IMG/VR virus record: IMGVR_UViG_2617270943_000001
Location: 1 to 26,221 of that record
DNA: 26,221 nucleotides
Origin: a virus
Taxonomy: Duplodnaviria; Heunggongvirae; Uroviricota; Caudoviricetes
Strand: one strand, 5' to 3'
The position numbers and the translations under genes are program-made. A model generated the notes under the pieces. That model had not been told where the DNA came from, searched no databases, and saw only the letters and a list, made by a program, of their open reading frames with translations. Positions 7,934-17,032 of this stretch are shown piece after piece. Position 1 is the first letter of the stretch, and the number at the start of each line of letters is the position of its first letter.

Positions 7934-8631
7934 AAAACATCGCCGCACAGATGGTTAACTTTGACCGTGAGCAGATGCGTCGGATCGCCAACAACATGCC
8001 GGAACAGTACGACGAAAAGCCGCAGGTACAGCAGGTAGCGCAGATCATCAACGGTGTGTTCAGCCAGTTACTGGCAACTTTCCCGGCGAGCCTGGCTAAC
8101 CGTGACCAGAATGAACTGAACGAAATCCGCCGCCAGTGGGTGCTGGCTTTTCGGGAAAACGGGATCACCACAATGGAACAGGTTAACGCTGGAATGCGCG
8201 TAGCCCGTCGGCAGAATCGACCATTCCTGCCATCACCCGGGCAGTTTGTCGCCTGGTGCCGGGAAGAAGCATCCGTTACCGCCGGGCTGCCAAACGCCAG
8301 CGAGCTGGTTGATATGGTTTACGAGTATTGCCGGAAGCGCGGGCTGTATCCGGATGCAGAGTCTTATCCGTGGAAATCAAACGCGCACTACTGGCTGGTT
8401 ACCAACCTGTATCAGAACATGCGGGCCAATGCGTTGACTGACGCGGAATTACGGCGCAAGGCTGCCGATGAACTGTCCTGTATGACCGCACGAATTAACC
8501 GTGGTGAGGCTATACCTGAACCAGTAAAACAACTTCCTGTCATGGGCGGTAGACCTCTAAATCGTGCACAGGCTCTGGCGAAGATCGCAGAAATCAAAGC
8601 TAAGTTTGGGCTGAAAGGAGCAAGGGTATGA
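7930..8631 (+). CDS. P: Replication protein P (DnaB helicase loader), 233 aa
   Basis: Translation MKNIAAQMVNFDREQMRRIANNMPEQYDEKPQVQQVAQ... is near-identical to lambda P; ATGA overlap with the O stop. Confidence 0.95.
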   Translation: MKNIAAQMVNFDREQMRRIANNMPEQYDEKPQVQQVAQIINGVFSQLLATFPASLANRDQNELNEIRRQWVLAFRENGITTMEQVNAGMRVARRQNRPFLPSPGQFVAWCREEASVTAGLPNASELVDMVYEYCRKRGLYPDAESYPWKSNAHYWLVTNLYQNMRANALTDAELRRKAADELSCMTARINRGEAIPEPVKQLPVMGGRPLNRAQALAKIAEIKAKFGLKGARV

Positions 8632-8930
8632 CGGGCAAAGAGGCAATTATTCATTACCTGGGGACTCATAAGAAATTCTGTGCGCAGGACGTTGCCGCGG
8701 TAACAGGCGCAACGGTAACCAGCATAAATCAGGCTGCGGCTAAAATGGCACGGGCAGGTCTTCTGGCTATCGAAGGTAAGGTCTGGCGAACGGTGTATTA
8801 CCGGTTTGCTACCAGAGAAGAACGGGAAGGAAAGGTGAGCACGAATCTGATTTTTAAGGAGTGTCGCCAGAGTGCCGCGATGAAACGGGTATTGAGGGTA
8901 TATAAAAGAACATCAATGGGTACACAATGA
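8628..8930 (+). CDS. ren: Ren protein, 100 aa
   Basis: Translation MTGKEAIIHYLGTH...AAKMARAGLL...VWRTVYYRFATREEREGK matches lambda Ren; overlaps the P stop. Confidence 0.85.
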   Translation: MTGKEAIIHYLGTHKKFCAQDVAAVTGATVTSINQAAAKMARAGLLAIEGKVWRTVYYRFATREEREGKVSTNLIFKECRQSAAMKRVLRVYKRTSMGTQ

Positions 8931-8997
8931 TGAAACAGGTGAGTTGAGTTCAAACTGTAGTACAATTCTCTCCAGTTTGAACAGGAAAGAATATTCT

Positions 8998-9330
8998 ATG
9001 AACCCTTATATTTATCTTGGTGGTGCAATACTTGCAGAGGTCATTGGTACAACCTTAATGAAGTTTTCAGAAGGTTTTACACGGTTATGGCCATCTGTTG
9101 GTACAATTATTTGTTATTGTGCATCATTCTGGTTATTAGCTCAGACGCTGGCTTATATTCCTACAGGGATTGCTTATGCTATCTGGTCAGGAGTCGGTAT
9201 TGTCCTGATTAGCTTACTGTCATGGGGACTTTTCGGCCAACGGCTGGACCTGCCAGCCATTATAGGCATGATGTTGATTTGTGCCGGTGTGTTGGTTATT
9301 AATTTATTGTCACGAAGCACACCACATTAA
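8998..9330 (+). CDS. emrE: SMR-family multidrug efflux transporter EmrE, 110 aa
   Basis: Translation MNPYIYLGGAILAEVIGTTLMKFSEGFTRLWPSVG... matches E. coli EmrE (the DLP12-borne gene) with four predicted TM helices; ATG at 8998 preceded by AGGAAAG. Confidence 0.9.
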   Translation: MNPYIYLGGAILAEVIGTTLMKFSEGFTRLWPSVGTIICYCASFWLLAQTLAYIPTGIAYAIWSGVGIVLISLLSWGLFGQRLDLPAIIGMMLICAGVLVINLLSRSTPH

Positions 9331-9361
9331 AAATAATTTGTTTCTAAACGACTAAAATATG

Positions 9362-9394
9362 GAGGCTCTTATATTTATATGAGCCTCGTTTTAT
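9362..9394 (+). terminator. Rho-independent terminator after emrE
   Basis: GAGGCTC-loop-GAGCCTC hairpin followed by GTTTTATGCTTTTTG. Confidence 0.5.
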
Positions 9395-9584
9395 GCTTTT
9401 TGTTAATGTCTTTATTTTTTATGTATTCTTTTGTGCTTTCAAGATTATGGCGTAAGAAAATTGCAATACGATTATTGTTGTATATTCAAGATAATGTGAC
9501 CTTAATTGTCTTTTTAAATAAAAATTAAACAAAATTATATCCCACCACTAAGGTTTATAAAAGCATACGTTAGCAGGTGTCACC

Positions 9585-11111
9585 ATGAAAAAAGCCATAG
9601 CATATATGCGATTTTCATCACCAGGTCAGATGTCTGGCGACTCATTAAACCGACAGAGAAGACTTATTGCTGAATGGTTAAAGGTAAATAGTGATTATTA
9701 TCTTGATACCATAACATATGAAGATTTAGGATTAAGTGCATTCAAAGGAAAGCATGCACAATCAGGAGCTTTTTCGGAATTTTTAGATGCTATAGAGCAT
9801 GGTTATATATTGCCAGGAACTACATTGTTAGTTGAAAGTCTGGACAGACTTTCAAGAGAAAAAGTCGGTGAAGCGATTGAACGTCTGAAATTGATTTTGA
9901 ATCACGGTATTGATGTTATAACTCTTTGCGACAATACAGTCTATAATATTGACTCTTTGAATGAGCCATATTCATTAATAAAAGCCATACTTATAGCACA
10001 AAGGGCAAATGAAGAAAGCGAGATAAAGTCAAGTCGGGTTAAATTATCATGGAAGAAAAAACGGCAGGATGCACTGGAATCAGGTACGATTATGACGGCG
10101 TCTTGTCCGAGATGGCTCTCCTTAGATGACAAAAGAACGGCTTTTGTTCCAGACCCCGACAGGGTGAAAACTATTGAGCTAATTTTTAAACTCAGGATGG
10201 AAAGGCGCTCATTGAATGCAATAGCCAAGTATTTAAATGATCATGCTGTAAAGAATTTCTCAGGAAAAGAAAGTGCATGGGGACCTTCTGTAATTGAAAA
10301 ATTATTAGCGAATAAAGCTCTGATAGGTATATGCGTACCTTCATATCGTGCAAGAGGTAAAGGAATAAGTGAAATCGCTGGCTATTATCCCAGAGTCATA
10401 TCAGATGATTTGTTTTACGCTGTACAGGAAATTCGGTTGGCACCTTTTGGTATTAGCAATAGTAGCAAAAATCCTATGTTGATAAATCTACTTCGAACAG
10501 TTATGAAGTGCGAGGCTTGTGGTAATACCATGATTGTTCATGCGGTATCTAGAAGTTTGCATGGCTATTATGTTTGTCCGATGAGAAGACTGCATCGATG
10601 TGACAGGCCATCAATAAAGAGAGATTTGGTTGATTATAATATCATTAATGAGTTGCTTTTTAATTGTAGTAAAATCCAACCAGTTGAAAACAAGAAAGAT
10701 GCTAATGAAACTTTAGAGTTGAAAATTATTGAGCTCCAGATGAAAATTAATAATTTAATTGCTGCATTATCTGTTGCGCCTGAAGTTACCGCTATAGCAG
10801 AAAAAATCAGAGTATTAGATAAGGAATTACGAAGGGCTTCTGTATCATTAAAAACTTTGAAGAGTAAAGCGGTGAGTTCACTTGGTGATTTTCATGCTAT
10901 TGACTTAACCAGTAAAAATGGGCGAGAGCTATGTCGTACACTTGCCTATAAAACATTCGAAAAAATCATAATCAATACAGATAATAAAACCTGTGATATC
11001 TATTTTATGAATGGCATTGTTTTTAAACACTATCCTTTAATGAAAACAATATCCGCCCAGCAGGCGATAAGTACTCTCAAATATATGGTTGATGGTGAGG
11101 TTTATTTTTGA
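9585..11111 (+). CDS. ybcK: Large serine recombinase (resolvase/invertase-type N-terminal domain with recombinase and zinc-ribbon extension), 508 aa
   Basis: N-terminal AIAYMRFSSPGQ with catalytic-Ser context and LLVESLDRLSR motif; C-terminal CxxC...C cluster; AT-rich codon usage; resembles DLP12 YbcK. Confidence 0.8.
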   Translation: MKKAIAYMRFSSPGQMSGDSLNRQRRLIAEWLKVNSDYYLDTITYEDLGLSAFKGKHAQSGAFSEFLDAIEHGYILPGTTLLVESLDRLSREKVGEAIERLKLILNHGIDVITLCDNTVYNIDSLNEPYSLIKAILIAQRANEESEIKSSRVKLSWKKKRQDALESGTIMTASCPRWLSLDDKRTAFVPDPDRVKTIELIFKLRMERRSLNAIAKYLNDHAVKNFSGKESAWGPSVIEKLLANKALIGICVPSYRARGKGISEIAGYYPRVISDDLFYAVQEIRLAPFGISNSSKNPMLINLLRTVMKCEACGNTMIVHAVSRSLHGYYVCPMRRLHRCDRPSIKRDLVDYNIINELLFNCSKIQPVENKKDANETLELKIIELQMKINNLIAALSVAPEVTAIAEKIRVLDKELRRASVSLKTLKSKAVSSLGDFHAIDLTSKNGRELCRTLAYKTFEKIIINTDNKTCDIYFMNGIVFKHYPLMKTISAQQAISTLKYMVDGEVYF

Positions 11112-11255
11112 GTAATAATCACTTTTTCAACCGTGCTATAGTAAGAAAGTTAGGTAAGTACATTTAGACTGGCCCCCTGAATCTCCAGACAACCAATATC
11201 ACTTAAATAAGTGATAGTCTTAATACTAGTTTTTAGACTAGTCATTGGAGAACAG

Positions 11256-11621
11256 ATGATTGATGTCTTAGGGCCGGAGAAACGCAGACGGCGTACCACA
11301 CAGGAAAAGATCGCAATTGTTCAGCAGAGCTTTGAACCGGGGATGACGGTCTCCCTCGTTGCCCGGCAACATGGTGTAGCAGCCAGCCAGTTATTTCTCT
11401 GGCGTAAGCAATACCAGGAAGGAAGTCTTACTGCTGTCGCCGCCGGAGAACAGGTTGTTCCTGCCTCTGAACTTGCTGCCGCCATGAAGCAGATTAAAGA
11501 ACTCCAGCGCCTGCTCGGCAAGAAAACGATGGAAAATGAACTCCTCAAAGAAGCCGTTGAATATGGACGGGCAAAAAAGTGGATAGCGCACGCGCCCTTA
11601 TTGCCCGGGGATGGGGAGTAA
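11256..11621 (+). CDS. insC: IS2 transposase OrfA (InsC)
   Basis: Translation [47 protein letters not shown]... with HTH; ends just after the AAAAAAG slippery heptamer at 11573..11579. Confidence 0.9.
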
Positions 11622-12484
11622 GCTTAGTCAGCCGTTGTCTCCGGGTGTCGCGTGCGCAGTTGCACGTCATTCTCAGACGAACCGATGACTGGATGGATGG
11701 CCGCCGCAGTCGTCACACTGATGATACGGATGTGCTTCTCCGTATACACCATGTTATCGGAGAGCTGCCCACGTATGGTTATCGTCGGGTATGGGCGCTG
11801 CTTCGCAGACAGGCAGAACTTGATGGTATGCCTGCGATCAATGCCAAACGTGTTTACCGGATCATGCGCCAGAATGCGCTGTTGCTTGAGCGAAAACCTG
11901 CTGTACCGCCATCGAAACGGGCACATACAGGCAGAGTGGCCGTGAAAGAAAGCAATCAGCGATGGTGCTCTGACGGGTTCGAGTTCTGCTGTGATAACGG
12001 AGAGAGACTGCGTGTCACGTTCGCGCTGGACTGCTGTGATCGTGAGGCACTGCACTGGGCGGTCACTACCGGCGGCTTCAACAGTGAAACAGTACAGGAC
12101 GTCATGCTGGGAGCGGTGGAACGCCGCTTCGGCAACGATCTTCCGTCGTCTCCAGTGGAGTGGCTGACGGATAATGGTTCATGCTACCGGGCTAATGAAA
12201 CACGCCAGTTCGCCCGGATGTTGGGACTTGAACCGAAGAACACGGCGGTGCGGAGTCCGGAGAGTAACGGAATAGCAGAGAGCTTCGTGAAAACGATAAA
12301 GCGTGACTACATCAGTATCATGCCCAAACCAGACGGGTTAACGGCAGCAAAGAACCTTGCAGAGGCGTTCGAGCATTATAACGAATGGCATCCGCATAGT
12401 GCGCTGGGTTATCGCTCGCCACGGGAATATCTGCGGCAGCGGGCTTGTAATGGGTTAAGTGATAACAGATGTCTGGAAATATAG
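11579..12484 (+). CDS. insD: IS2 transposase OrfB (InsD; DDE catalytic domain, expressed by -1 frameshift fusion to OrfA)
   Basis: The ORF is in the -1 frame relative to insC and overlaps it by 43 nt; sequence matches IS2 InsD as recalled, with the DDE catalytic core expected for an IS3-family OrfB. Confidence 0.9.
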
Positions 12485-12558
12485 GGGCAAATCCAACATT
12501 AAAATTATCTATCCTGAACGAAGCGTCCTGAGCTATGGTTTTACTATAGAGACTGCCA

Positions 12559-12882
12559 ATGGATGCTGGCGTTCTCGTTCTAGCAGTTCAACAATACCCA
12601 ATCACAAAACAATTCACTGATAACGAACTTTGCACACTCGCCTGGTTATGGCGAGCAGGGAATGTGATGTTAATTACCTACCAGAACGTTACTCCTCTTC
12701 TTCAGGTTGCGGAGCATCGTGAAGCTGGTCGCTTCACTTCTATCGAGCAAGAATATCCCCAGATACTCAATAAGGCACAGGCAATCCTTGCCAGAGAAAC
12801 GGCACATGTAAAATTCCGGCCGTGGCAGGATGATAAGTGGAGTCGAGTTTTGCCGCATTTACGTTCGGATCGATTACAGTAG
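12559..12882 (+). CDS. Hypothetical protein, 107 aa (orphan ORF immediately right of IS2)
   Basis: ORF with ordinary codon usage; no recognisable motif; not a lambda nin-region gene. Confidence 0.4.
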   Translation: MDAGVLVLAVQQYPITKQFTDNELCTLAWLWRAGNVMLITYQNVTPLLQVAEHREAGRFTSIEQEYPQILNKAQAILARETAHVKFRPWQDDKWSRVLPHLRSDRLQ

Positions 12883-13343
12883 ATTCCAATTAACAATGAG
12901 AAACACATAGCCACCCCGTGGTATTGAAACCATATAATGTTGGATTTGAAAACAGATCTTTTTCCATGTATTAATAACTACATCCCCGCGAGTGATTCAA
13001 AAAGGAGGGCCCAATTTTGTCCGAGTTTTTGTATTCCCCCGCATGCCGCTGCGGAGCACTACATCTGAGTGTCTGACTAGGGGATAAAATTAGACTGGAT
13101 AGTGAGAAGAAAGTGGCGTGCTAGGCTGTGCCGAGTGCTACCAGTACACCCTGGGGGTGTGCAGCTTTCGCCGAGACTGTAGTGGGTATCGGTTAATGCA
13201 CGAAAAACCGAGAGGTCAGACAACCAATTTGCCGTAGGATTGTTTCCGGTGCGATACCGGTGTACTAACTGAAAGCAATGCGAAAAAGCATAAACTCGGT
13301 CCTTCAGTCGCCCTACACACTATTTACTAAGAAGGGCTAAAGC

Positions 13344-13700
13344 ATGGATACAATTATCACATGGATGGGAGATCGTCTGTTGGGGTGGATAACAAACAAA
13401 TCCGATCTGCGGCAGAGGGCAATCACTGGATTAACTCCTGCGATTTATTCAACAATTTTATATACTGAAAAATTAAAACGTGGTGAGCCTAATAACCCAA
13501 ACGAAGAAGAAAAACTTTATAGGCTTTGGTATGAAGCGTCTTCCCAAGTCGTAGACTTTGATCGAGAGCTGGCTAAAAGATGTTTAGATAAATCAGAATA
13601 TTGGCTTCATTCTGAATTATATAGCCCTGAGAAAGTTGGAGAGCTAAACATTTCTTTGGTTGGTATGAAGGCAACGCTTGAAGGAATAAAGCACAATTAA
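13344..13700 (+). CDS. Hypothetical protein, 118 aa (AT-rich orphan ORF)
   Basis: ORF with AAGGG Shine-Dalgarno-like sequence upstream, preceded by a GC-rich structured leader; low-GC codon usage suggests foreign origin. Confidence 0.45.
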   Translation: MDTIITWMGDRLLGWITNKSDLRQRAITGLTPAIYSTILYTEKLKRGEPNNPNEEEKLYRLWYEASSQVVDFDRELAKRCLDKSEYWLHSELYSPEKVGELNISLVGMKATLEGIKHN

Positions 13701-13887
13701 AACCTTTGATTTGCGATAATCAACTCGCCATAATCATGTCATCGGAGCCTGAACAACTCCGGTGACTTCTGCGCTAAACGGGGACGTTTATGCGCACACA
13801 CAATCCAAACTCTCTTCTCCCTCCAAAGATGCAGAAATGCACCTGCGATATATTGTATCCAGCGTTTGACCTCTGCGGAGGTGAAGC

Positions 13888-14343
13888 GTGAATCTCCCAC
13901 AAGATGGCATCAAATTACATCGCGGTAACTTCACCGCTATCGGTCGGCAGATCCAGCCTTATCTGGAGGAGGGCAAATGCTTTCGCATGGTGCTTAAACC
14001 GTGGCGTGAGAAACGCAGTCTTTCCCAGAATGCACTCAGCCACATGTGGTACAGCGAAATCAGTGAATACCTCATCAGCAGGGGTAAAACGTTCGCTACT
14101 CCAGCTTGGGTAAAAGATGCTCTCAAACACACATATCTCGGTTATGAAACCAAAGACCTGGTTGATGTTGTAACCGGTGATATCACCACTATCCAGTCGT
14201 TACGCCATACCTCCGATCTTGATACCGGAGAGATGTATGTCTTCCTGTGTAAGGTTGAAGCCTGGGCGGTGAATATTGGCTGCCACCTGACTATTCCGCA
14301 GAGCTGCGAGTTCCAGCTGCTCCGCGACAAGCAGGAGGCGTAA
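13888..14343 (+). CDS. ybcN: NinB-like protein (YbcN family), 151 aa
   Basis: Translation [27 protein letters not shown]...[13 protein letters not shown] matches DLP12 YbcN and the NinB family RSLxQN motif; GTG start. Confidence 0.8.
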
Positions 14344-15813: not shown

Positions 15814-15965
15814 AAAAATAAAGGGTAATATATAACAGAAGGTTTGTATAGTTAGAAGCAAGGTTGTGCTTCTAAAGGAAGTGGCTTGAGGGAGCCACTT
15901 ATATGTTGGGGAGGCAAAGCCTCCCACAACATATCTTTTAGTAATCAAATTAGAACTGGTAAACC
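15814..15965 (-). ncRNA. Candidate small RNA between the porin 3' end and the minus-strand terminator (IpeX-like position)
   Basis: Three perfect 8-bp hairpins (15853..15874, 15879..15900, 15901..15934) plus the terminator hairpin in under 180 nt, co-directional with the porin gene. The DLP12 sRNA IpeX is reported at the nmpC 3' end; sequence identity not verified. Confidence 0.25.
15901..15940 (+). terminator. Rho-independent terminator on plus strand (candidate tR' of the late operon)
   Basis: Extended hairpin ATATGTTG-GGGAGGC-AAA-GCCTCCC-ACAACATAT followed by CTTTT, about 140 nt downstream of Q. Confidence 0.5.
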
Positions 15966-17032
15966 ATACCTACAGCAACGATATCATCGGTAGCAACGCC
16001 AGATGCTTTCGTGAAATCGCTCTTATCAATCAGGTTGATTTTGTAGTCAACAAAAGTGGACATATTTTTGTTGAAGTAATAGGTTGCACCTACATCAACA
16101 TATTCAACCAGGTCCTGATCACCCCAAACACCCAAGTCTTTTCCTTTAGAATGCAGGTAAGCAACGGATGGACGCAGGCCGAAGTCGAACTGATATTGTG
16201 CAACAGCTTCGAAGTTTTGTGCTTTGTTGGCAATATGGTTATTACCAAAAACAGTCATGTTCTGGGTTTCAGAATAGGTGGTGGCCAGATAGATGTTGTT
16301 CGCATCATATTTCAGACCAGCTGCCCATACTTCAGCATTTTGACCAGAAGCATTCAGACCGTTGTTACCGTAGATAACCTGATTATTAGTGCGATCAGAT
16401 TTAGCATAGGTTGCACCCACGCCGAATCCTTCATACTCATAAGTAGTTGAGAAACCGAAACCATCGCCATTAGCTTCAGTTACTTCATTTCGGTCATTTT
16501 TGCCCTGATACTGAGCTGCAAAGTTCAGGCCATCAACCAGACCAAAGAAGTCGTTGTTACGATAAGTTGCAACACCTGTGGTGCGACCAGTCATGAATAC
16601 ATCTGTTTGGGTCCAGGTATCGCCACCGAATTCTGGCAGAACGTCAGTCCACGCACCGATGTCGTATGCTACACCGTAGTTACGGCCGTAATCGATTGAG
16701 CCGTAGTCACCGAATTTCAGGCCTGCAAATGCAAGACGGGTTTTGTCTTTGGAGGAACCTTGAGATTCAGCGCGGTTGCCTTTGAATTCATATTCCCACT
16801 GACCGAAACCAGTCAGTTGATCGTTGATTTGGGTTTCACCTTTGAAGCCAAGACGGGCATAAGTAGTATCACCATCATCTGCATCATTAGAGGAGAAGTA
16901 GTGCTTAGCATTAACTTTCCCGTACAGATCCAGCTTGTTACTGTCTTTATTATAAATTTCAGCTGCCTGAGCAGACATCGCCATCAGTACTGATGCAGCT
17001 ACAGCAGAAATTGCCACTGTTAATTTTTTCAT
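15950..17032 (-). CDS. nmpC: General porin of the OmpC/OmpF/PhoE family (NmpC/Lc-type phage-encoded porin), 360 aa
   Basis: Signal peptide [29 protein letters not shown], porin motifs and C-terminal VGMVYQF. Encoded antisense to the late operon between Q and the lysis genes, as in DLP12 and PA-2. Confidence 0.9.

Follow-up and report, generated by a model that had tools for sequence, protein, structure and literature searches.

Lambdoid phages carry morons, cargo genes of deviating GC content set between conserved genes, and a described example of such an arrangement is the DLP12 prophage of Escherichia coli K-12, with the order renD-emrE-ylcJ-ybcK-ybcL-ybcM-ylcH-ybcN. Here we analyze the corresponding segment of a 26,221-nucleotide stretch of Caudoviricetes DNA (IMG/VR record IMGVR_UViG_2617270943_000001, positions 1 to 26,221), termed the window throughout, and an RNA of ~330 nt that lies within this segment. 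DLP12 resembles the window in the position, order and sequence of ren', emrE, ylcJ and ybcK, and again in ylcH-ybcN-ninE-ybcO-rusA, but it has ybcL-ybcM in place of the IS2 element, antirepressor remnant, RNA and small open reading frame (ORF), orf118, of the window, and its ren carries IS3. DLP12 is defective, whereas the window retains int, exo/bet/gam, cI, O, P, and lysis and terminase genes. Phage Turner, a surface-water isolate, has emrE, ybcK, the remnant ORF, the RNA block and orf118 as in the window, without IS2. The ren-ninB junction of phage lambda is the same junction without cargo, whereas here one item of cargo would be an RNA gene. The lambda junction contains a hairpin with a T-run, which we take to be tR2, and the terminator of the RNA homologues sits at this place.

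A promoter, a structured RNA, a terminator and a small protein in a prophage also make up the layout shared with type III toxin-antitoxin (TA) systems and with AbiF/RCd22, a prophage system of Clostridioides difficile that consists of a structured non-coding RNA and a small protein (PMC12373285). The present locus differs from these in that the RNA has no repeats, many unrelated proteins stand behind one RNA, and the window copy has no terminator. YbcK shares its domain architecture and active-site motif with large serine recombinases (phage integrases, TnpX/TndX, XisF-type), but is not located at a prophage end, has no recognisable att sites, is lone cargo and has no close solved structure. 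The emrE-ybcK module is already known and annotated from K-12 DLP12, and IS2 is routine; the new item is the RNA family, which belongs to the broad class of phage and prophage structured RNAs. The island itself is ordinary and its value lies in the RNA: lambdoid E. coli phages are among the best-studied genomes, yet a covarying RNA of this size has been left unannotated in them or mis-called as tiny ORFs.

We interpret the segment as a mosaic cargo slot at the boundary of the replication and nin regions of a DLP12-type lambdoid (pro)phage, which would have been filled in several events and would include an RNA gene. We assign this interpretation a probability of about 0.7.

A variable cargo slot between ren and the nin genes

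According to the ORF map and near-identical RefSeq loci, the window has the gene order int, exo/bet/gam, cI, cro, YdaT-type cII, O, P, ren and cargo, followed on the nin side by ylcH-ybcN-ninE-ybcO-rusA-ylcG-quuD, a porin gene, lysis genes and terminase. We thus classify it as a DLP12-type lambdoid E. coli prophage, with the tyrosine integrase of its own phage at 1-1164. Phage Turner (PP925837) is collinear with the window at 97.6-99% identity from cII (6378) past Q (~15991), one IS2 excepted, which indicates that the arrangement belongs to a functional phage type and not merely to a decayed remnant. The flanks of the slot are as follows.

8628-8930, + strand: ren (PHROG 142 Ren-like, E=1.8e-41)
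13705-13891, + strand: conserved right flank, where homology with K-12, PhiR5_1 and phage 82 restarts
13706-13734, + strand: nin promoter-like site, TTGATT...CATAAT, a promoter-like match in a consensus scan
13790-13891, + strand: ylcH/orf33, which runs into ybcN at 13888
13888-14343, + strand: ybcN, YbcN/NinB-like (NCBIfam PRK09741, E=2e-83)

Based on blastn breakpoints, homology with relatives stops at ~8903 and restarts at 13702-13705. Junction sequences place the left border inside the last ~9 codons of ren, the C terminus of which departs from those of lambda and PhiR5_1 at ~8897-8904. By these breakpoints we delimit the variable segment as 8904-13704, ~4.8 kb. A sequence-only reading, produced by a model before this analysis, had proposed an insert between 8931 and 13887; the insert is real, but its edges lie elsewhere. 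We place the right border of the slot at the conserved nin promoter region (~13705), in a flank for which the phage 82 record X92588 annotates -35/-10 signals as well as orf33/orf151. The ybcN product scores 22.2 bits against Pfam NinB, under the cut-off of 23.8, and falls into the YbcN subfamily by NCBIfam; several phage records label the YbcN/NinB-like gene as NinB. All elements named in the sequence-only reading (ren, emrE, the recombinase, IS2, two ORFs, a non-coding block and the ninB-like gene) were recovered, together with ylcJ, which it had overlooked.

Comparison with related lambdoid genomes separates the modules by their breakpoints and shows differing cargo in the ren/nin slot. In pairwise blastn, K-12 DLP12 shares window positions 8717-11150 (96.9% identity) and 13705 onward (97.6%), with ybcL-ybcM between, and PhiR34_1 has this K-12 arrangement of ybcL-ybcM after ybcK. 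Phage 4A7 has emrE-ylcJ-ybcK followed by an esterase gene on the reverse strand. PhiR5_1 matches the window as far as 8903 and again from 13702; between these points it has only 12572-12864 in common with it. Its slot is without emrE-ybcK and is occupied by a complete Rha gene (250 aa), an ORF of 169 aa and different small ORFs. Klebsiella phage Kp4856-1 has only 12956-13310 (78% identity) and ninB in common with the region. E. coli MB56 and phage Turner are collinear with the window save for IS2, and in both the window and Turner ybcK is followed by the antirepressor remnant, the RNA and orf118. IdasGreatGrand lacks emrE-ybcK; at the antirepressor position it carries an ORF of 202 aa, with the RNA block and orf118 next in line, a layout that suggests itself as the ancestral arrangement. 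With at least three alternative cargos at the same position, the ren/nin junction qualifies by sequence comparison as a cargo slot, and the earlier idea of a hotspot is borne out to this extent.

The sequence-only reading had envisaged a single AT-rich island of ~5 kb, acquired as a unit between ren and ninB. It is correct that ren and ninB are nearly adjacent in lambda, with a gap of just 73 bp, and that emrE, ylcJ, ybcK and orf118 are clearly AT-rich. Nevertheless, a single acquisition can hardly account for the segment: relatives share different sub-segments with independent distributions and breakpoints, with emrE-ybcK in 1399 genomes compared with 159 for the RNA block; IS2 is a separate and recent arrival; and GC is at or above average in IS2, the antirepressor remnant and the RNA.

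GC content is 0.417 for emrE, 0.247 for ylcJ, 0.359 for ybcK and 0.381 for orf118, compared with 0.475 for the whole window; IS2 reaches 0.531, the RNA block 0.511 and the remnant ORF 0.469. Outside the region, just 3% of 400-nt windows match the emrE-ybcK mean in AT-richness. The AT-rich share is about half of the 4.8 kb, and the supposed GC-rich block barely exceeds the window average. A sharp shift in composition, as described previously, thus applies to emrE, ylcJ, ybcK and orf118, but not to IS2, the remnant ORF or the RNA block.

The proposal that the hotspot carries morons and defence cargo fared unevenly. The slot is variable in its cargo, but the defence label found no family match above chance. 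PADLOC-DB 2.0 gave no defence family for the products of ren, ylcJ, ybcK, the antirepressor remnant or orf118, and a defence search of these ORFs together with four cargo proteins of RNA homologues gave one weak PADLOC match (E=0.006), with nothing above chance. The same four cargo proteins belong to no Pfam or NCBIfam family. Defence cargo stays a guess. In one RNA-bearing phage contig (L066, 1108-3600 in oriented coordinates), translations upstream of the RNA read as ParB-like, DGQHR-motif (DndB-like) and DUF550-like proteins; in phages of this type, the replication-to-nin interval carries further accessory genes, too.

The structured RNA block

The gene-free block at ~12883-13343 holds the ~330-nt RNA, followed directly by orf118.

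12946-12975, + strand: promoter-like motif of the RNA, TTGAAA, 18 nt, ATTAAT, with TG upstream (putative, from conserved columns)
12982-13309, + strand: structured RNA, unannotated, delimited by comparative structure; domain 1 at 12982-13085, domain 2 at 13093-13309
13313-13343, + strand: linker with hairpin GCCCU...AGGGC, overlapping the orf118 ribosome-binding site (RBS), at the terminator position of most homologues
13344-13700, + strand: orf118, small protein, predicted all-helical, of an uncharacterised family

In a pairwise comparison of Kp4856-1 with the window, long invariant runs alternate with variable runs. Homologues were collected by pattern scans of IMG/VR and metagenomes, from contigs encoding orf118 homologues, and with an nhmmer profile of the RNA. 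This resulted in ~100 loci with 33 distinct core sequences of 70-100% identity; among the hosts are E. coli, Klebsiella, Enterobacter bugandensis and Obesumbacterium proteus, and one contig, which carries isrJ, is probably from Salmonella; the metagenome scan added only close relatives. The block is present in 159 of 5426 complete E. coli genomes (~3%), always in single copy. Among the 40 E. coli matches listed there is no annotated feature over it, and the records of Turner and IdasGreatGrand split it into two hypothetical ORFs.

RNAalifold folded a 19-sequence alignment into 85 pairs in two domains. In the proposed structure 96.7% of alignment cells are paired, compared with 33-46% when the partner is slid by 1-3 columns. 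Pairs changed on both sides number 19 versus 3-7 in the slid controls, and cells changed on both sides 92 versus 7-13. None of 500 shuffles reached the observed percentage paired, double-change counts or covariation score, and 25 of 500 reached the observed further pair types. Many positions alternate between A-U and G-U or stay G-U, a tolerance pattern that points to the + strand only. On these comparisons we regard the block as a conserved, strand-specific structured RNA. The structured non-coding block of the sequence-only reading is thereby upheld by comparative evidence and not by the single-sequence fold.

Rfam 15 had no match to it in the window or in five divergent homologues, at gathering score or even at E<=5, ARAGORN detected no tRNA or tmRNA in it, and a literature search with RNA sequence strings and keywords returned nothing relevant. 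A scan for one invariant 18-mer in contigs of one genome per species, which misses strain-specific prophages, gave chance matches in unrelated phyla, none of which fit the RNA profile. Rfam matches were obtained elsewhere in these loci, namely to STnc100 downstream of Q in Kp4856-1 (L005, 7010-7146), and to a tRNA and isrJ beside the prophage in L062 (620-691, 1075-1148).

The conserved block could instead be a decayed protein gene or a site acting at the DNA level, such as a recombination linker or an array of binding sites. Phage records do annotate two small ORFs in it, the block sits at a module boundary, and in domain 1 a perfect Shine-Dalgarno (SD)-like AAGGAGG precedes a UUG from which a frame of 16-19 codons runs. 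Substitutions, however, are compensatory in helices and not enriched at third codon positions, G-U is tolerated on the + strand only, and stop codons and 1-nt indels disrupt every longer frame. We found no conserved ORF in the block; in the window, a stop codon cuts the 61-aa frame of Klebsiella, and indels of 1 nt are seen. Overall, we consider a non-RNA origin of the conservation highly improbable. The SD-like sequence lies 8 nt ahead of the UUG, and the frame ends at a conserved UGA. A peptide of 16-19 codons (~13003-13080) was considered and set aside: the frame shows no variation at any codon position and is thrown out of register by a 1-nt deletion in two lineages, so that it is probably non-coding.

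The strands of the first helix (12982-12992 and 13079-13090) read GGGGATAAA in the window and TTTATCCCCGC and GGGGATGAACC in divergent homologues, and were compared with the K-12 CRISPR array (L147). Mimicry of a CRISPR repeat by this helix (TTTATCCCCGC / GGGGATAAA, compared with the E. coli type I-E repeat GAGTTCCCCGCGCCAGCGGGGATAAACCG) was not adopted, as it consists of one post-hoc match of 9-11 nt that may be due to chance. The likeness is weakened in the variants L062 and L108.

Predicted RNA ends and exchangeable cargo

Upstream of the RNA, the sole conserved columns are TTGnA and, 17-18 nt on, a TGnTnnAT-like element (GT.T..AT columns). A putative sigma-70 promoter with a start near 12982 is a plausible interpretation, and we propose that the RNA is made as a separate gene product, driven by a sigma-70-like promoter of its own. 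An intrinsic terminator, CCGCC-loop-GGCGG-U7-8, is present in variants with a 178-aa cargo protein, with a 176/183-aa cargo protein and with no cargo, so in most lineages the RNA may end at an intrinsic terminator, where lambda has its presumed tR2. The terminator is absent from the window lineage. In this lineage the RNA would consequently also be the 5' leader of orf118, with the RBS in a hairpin. The unpaired stretches stay invariant while the scaffold around them covaries, which is more suggestive of a folded RNA with a protein or ligand partner than of a base-pairing, seed-type small RNA.

Within 30-115 nt after domain 2, either one of five unrelated protein families follows or no cargo. 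The first, orf118, stands behind the RNA without a terminator and occurs in E. coli, Enterobacter and Obesumbacterium as well as in two IMG/VR contigs. A 178-aa protein that begins and ends in hydrophobic helices accompanies at least five RNA lineages, the most divergent one among them, and a 176-183-aa Klebsiella protein contains an RxxxxH motif; the others are a 93-aa protein and, separately, a 177-aa protein. In lineage L055 the RNA and terminator are followed just by an ordinary-looking next gene 113 nt downstream. The cargo proteins have no match in Pfam, PADLOC or NCBIfam, and in PHROGs only unnamed families. Near-alike RNAs precede different cargo and divergent RNAs precede the same cargo, which argues that the 3' side of the RNA has been exchanged repeatedly by recombination; the cargo immediately 3' of the RNA would thus be what is swapped. 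There are loci that keep the RNA but have no cargo, and others (L116, L153) with a relative of orf118 but no RNA.

It is conceivable that the RNA is instead a cis-regulatory leader, riboswitch- or attenuator-like, which gates the next cargo ORF by termination in most lineages and by masking of the RBS in the orf118 lineage. This would agree with the presence of a same-strand ORF 30-115 nt past domain 2 in every locus with enough sequence, with the two kinds of 3' end (terminator or hairpin over the RBS), with the constancy of the RNA while the cargo changes, and with the gap of 20-50 nt after the terminator, which leaves little space for a separate promoter. On the other hand, nin operons have same-strand ORFs in close succession by default, an RNA of 330 nt with two domains would be large for a leader, the cargo belongs to unrelated orphan families, and L055 keeps RNA and terminator with only an ordinary-looking gene behind them. 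No switching helix was recognised on inspection: in the alignment and the variant tails we found neither antiterminator pairing nor overlap of the domain-2 closing helix with the 3' hairpin. We judge the leader to be unlikely, while giving it appreciable weight.

Similarly, the RNA might be the antitoxin-like partner of a toxic downstream protein, of the type III TA or AbiF/RCd22 kind, and the cassette an abortive-infection module. The order of promoter, structured RNA, terminator and small AT-rich orphan protein is like that of ToxIN and of the C. difficile prophage system AbiF/RCd22 (PMC12373285), and some cargo proteins have terminal hydrophobic helices or the RxxxxH motif. This proposal is very doubtful, given that the RNA is without tandem repeats (none at 12900-13350), that one RNA with at least five unrelated cargo families fits poorly with a specific RNA-protein antitoxin, that the window copy has no terminator, and that orf118 relatives occur without the RNA. 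Moreover, the cargo proteins have no PADLOC match and none in Pfam above chance, and for orf118 and the alternative cargo no match to a ToxN, AbiQ, CptN, TenpN, Abi_2 or HEPN family was obtained in Pfam, PADLOC or NCBIfam.

Several observations weigh against the interpretation of the locus as a mosaic slot with an autonomous RNA gene. The fold energy of single sequences is ordinary (z of about -0.2 to -0.3 on both strands, -0.29 for the block), like that of shuffled sequence, so that the case for the RNA rests on comparative evidence. The structure tested was derived from the same sequences as the covariation counts, and in eight further sequences 79-85 of the 85 pairs are retained, but these sequences closely resemble those already used. 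The family is narrow (Enterobacterales, at least 70% identical), and its covariation comes from few independent lineages. The hexamers of the RNA promoter are imperfect and were missed by the consensus scan, and it is from sequence that we deduce the promoter, the ends of the RNA and its expression in lysogens. The analysis brought out no partner or target for the RNA. In a packed nin operon, an ORF would be expected to follow closely on the same strand, and hence its presence does not discriminate an autonomous RNA from a leader. For YbcK, there are no flanking direct or inverted repeats in the window and no conserved flanks among orthologues that would mark recombination or att sites.

The functions given here for the RNA, orf118 and YbcK are ones that we infer. 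Very tentatively, the RNA may found a family of large two-domain RNAs in lambdoid phages of Enterobacterales, acting as a sensor or regulator, or as part of an RNA-protein particle, at the head of a swappable cassette and gating toxic or defence-type proteins such as orf118. If true, this would be an RNA-controlled accessory cassette of a kind undescribed for lambda-like phages. The presence of the RNA in the growable phages Turner, IdasGreatGrand and Klebsiella Kp4856-1 makes it directly testable.

Domain searches and structure prediction, suggested earlier for two orphan ORFs, identified one of them, of 107 aa, as an antirepressor remnant (see below), while orf118 remained without a family or fold match. 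The orf118 family comprises 21 clusters from Enterobacterales at 51-79% identity. A profile search added 351 remote cluster representatives (E<=0.001), mostly of 120-135 aa and without a Pfam domain; the two distant relatives examined, P0016 and P0142, are each located close to the integrase end of a prophage. AlphaFold2 with the family alignment predicts four helices in a generic bundle (pLDDT 79.8), for which Foldseek returned no significant neighbour (best E >=0.3, including de novo designed bundles). No Pfam, PADLOC or NCBIfam family matched orf118, and PHROGs gave only unnamed families. Weak matches to HEPN toxins were dropped since there is no conserved Rx4-6H motif. In a common E. coli variant (L012, L014, L008 and ~20 other IMG/VR loci), the ORF behind the RNA has only 66 aa; it matches the N-terminal half of orf118 at 82% identity but ends differently, corresponds to the separate PHROG 8527, and is frameshifted near codon 15 in some copies.

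The emrE-ylcJ-ybcK module, IS2 and the antirepressor remnant

The remainder of the slot, to the left of the RNA, contains the following features.

8948-8982, no strand assigned: inverted repeat GTTCAAACTGTAG / CTCCAGTTTGAAC, between the ren stop codon and emrE
8998-9330, + strand: emrE, SMR efflux transporter (Pfam PF00893 Multi_Drug_Res, E=3e-35, residues 3-94 of 110)
9379-9528, + strand: ylcJ, intact 49-aa small protein (Pfam PF23688 YlcJ, E=2.4e-35)
9585-11111, + strand: ybcK, 508-aa large serine recombinase (Pfam Resolvase PF00239, Recombinase PF07508, Zn_ribbon_recom PF13408)
11165-12495, + strand: IS2 (IS3 family), 1331 bp, with IS2 ends and an A6G slippery site at 11573
12559-12882, + strand: 3' remnant of a rha/ant antirepressor gene, 107 aa (Pfam PF10548 P22_AR_C only, E=1.1e-15)

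The synteny ren > emrE > ylcJ > ybcK and nucleotide homology to K-12 b0543-b0544 identify a DLP12-type module. Of 5426 complete E. coli genomes, 1399 carry the full emrE-ybcK module; for emrE alone the count is 3698. The module is also found in 12 phage records including viable lambdoid phages. emrE is the homologue of K-12 b0543, in agreement with the RefSeq annotation of identical loci, and would be a lysogenic-conversion gene for efflux of cations and quaternary ammonium compounds.

All three Pfam domains of YbcK score over their cut-offs, PHROG 95 (integrase) matches at E=5e-120, and the active-site motif YMRFSSPGQ is preserved at residues 7-15. A weak match to NCBIfam XisF (E=6.5e-13) is far under its cut-off, and phmmer against the Protein Data Bank (PDB) found nothing. 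Orthologues of ~509 aa and 41-61% identity occur in Atlantibacter, Yersinia, Pantoea, Erwinia, Kluyvera, Citrobacter and other Enterobacterales, in three contexts: at the end of a Mu-like prophage beside smpB; in a P2-like prophage, flanked by ogr on one side and by a tail-fibre assembly gene plus an autotransporter on the other; and in a lambdoid prophage between a ParB-like gene and KilA-N/Q. DNA similarity among orthologues begins exactly at the ATG, indicating that there are no conserved element ends. YbcK would thus be conserved single-gene cargo, predicted to be catalytically competent and distinct from the prophage integrase; that it forms part of an element with defined ends is not supported by the sequences compared. 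Lone cargo in three prophage architectures is unexplained for an enzyme class normally read as integrase. Lone YbcK-type genes of Atlantibacter, Yersinia and Pantoea are preceded by 300-480 gene-free nt, with flanks that are not conserved, and ybcK of both E. coli and Atlantibacter is far more AT-rich than its surroundings.

The inverted repeat at 8948-8982 has perfect 10-nt ends, 13-nt arms that are 92% complementary, and a 9-nt spacer. It is unique in the window, where none is expected by chance, and is also present in the homologous segment of K-12 DLP12. It could be a hairpin in the transcript, a regulator- or protein-binding site, or a recombinase site. Its position at the left edge of the module, the foreign composition of emrE-ylcJ-ybcK, and the three large-serine-recombinase domains with the RFSSPGQ motif would suit a small mobile element integrated and excised by YbcK, or an invertible switch under its control. 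Both are doubtful: the repeat has no second copy, flanking direct or inverted repeats were not found, orthologues in other genera are without emrE and conserved only from the ATG, and the position of the module is fixed among the relatives examined.

The right-hand joint of this module cut a rha/ant gene and left its 3' end alone. The remnant ORF matches the Ant C terminus in PHROGs and aligns only with the last ~300 nt of the PhiR5_1 Rha gene; the gene is longer in relatives (250 aa for Rha in PhiR5_1, 202 aa for the ORF in IdasGreatGrand). Of the two ORFs previously called orphans, orf118 is indeed without a named family, but the 107-aa ORF is not an orphan by domain search.

IS2 transposed later into the spacer after ybcK, 53 nt past the stop codon, duplicating 5 bp (ACATT at 11160-11164 and 12496-12500). 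Relatives without IS2 (L002, L003) are collinear across the joint in blastn, and RefSeq annotates an 'IS3-like element IS2 family transposase' in matching loci. The terminal inverted repeats align only with a 1-nt gap, which is normal for IS2. Among the records listed, only two complete E. coli genomes (H3, H4) match in a single piece at 100%, including this IS2 position. From these sequence comparisons, we consider the insertion a recent, incidental transposition. In the closest RefSeq relative, strain DXMF6-3R (L001), IS2 is located elsewhere, between orf118 and ylcH, and IS1 is at the quuD end; the window-type prophage is a frequent IS target.

Outside the slot, the window contains an intact 360-aa porin gene (15950-17032, - strand) between Q and the lysis genes. 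Identical loci designate it an OmpC-type porin, and it is the counterpart of nmpC, which is interrupted by IS5 in K-12 DLP12.

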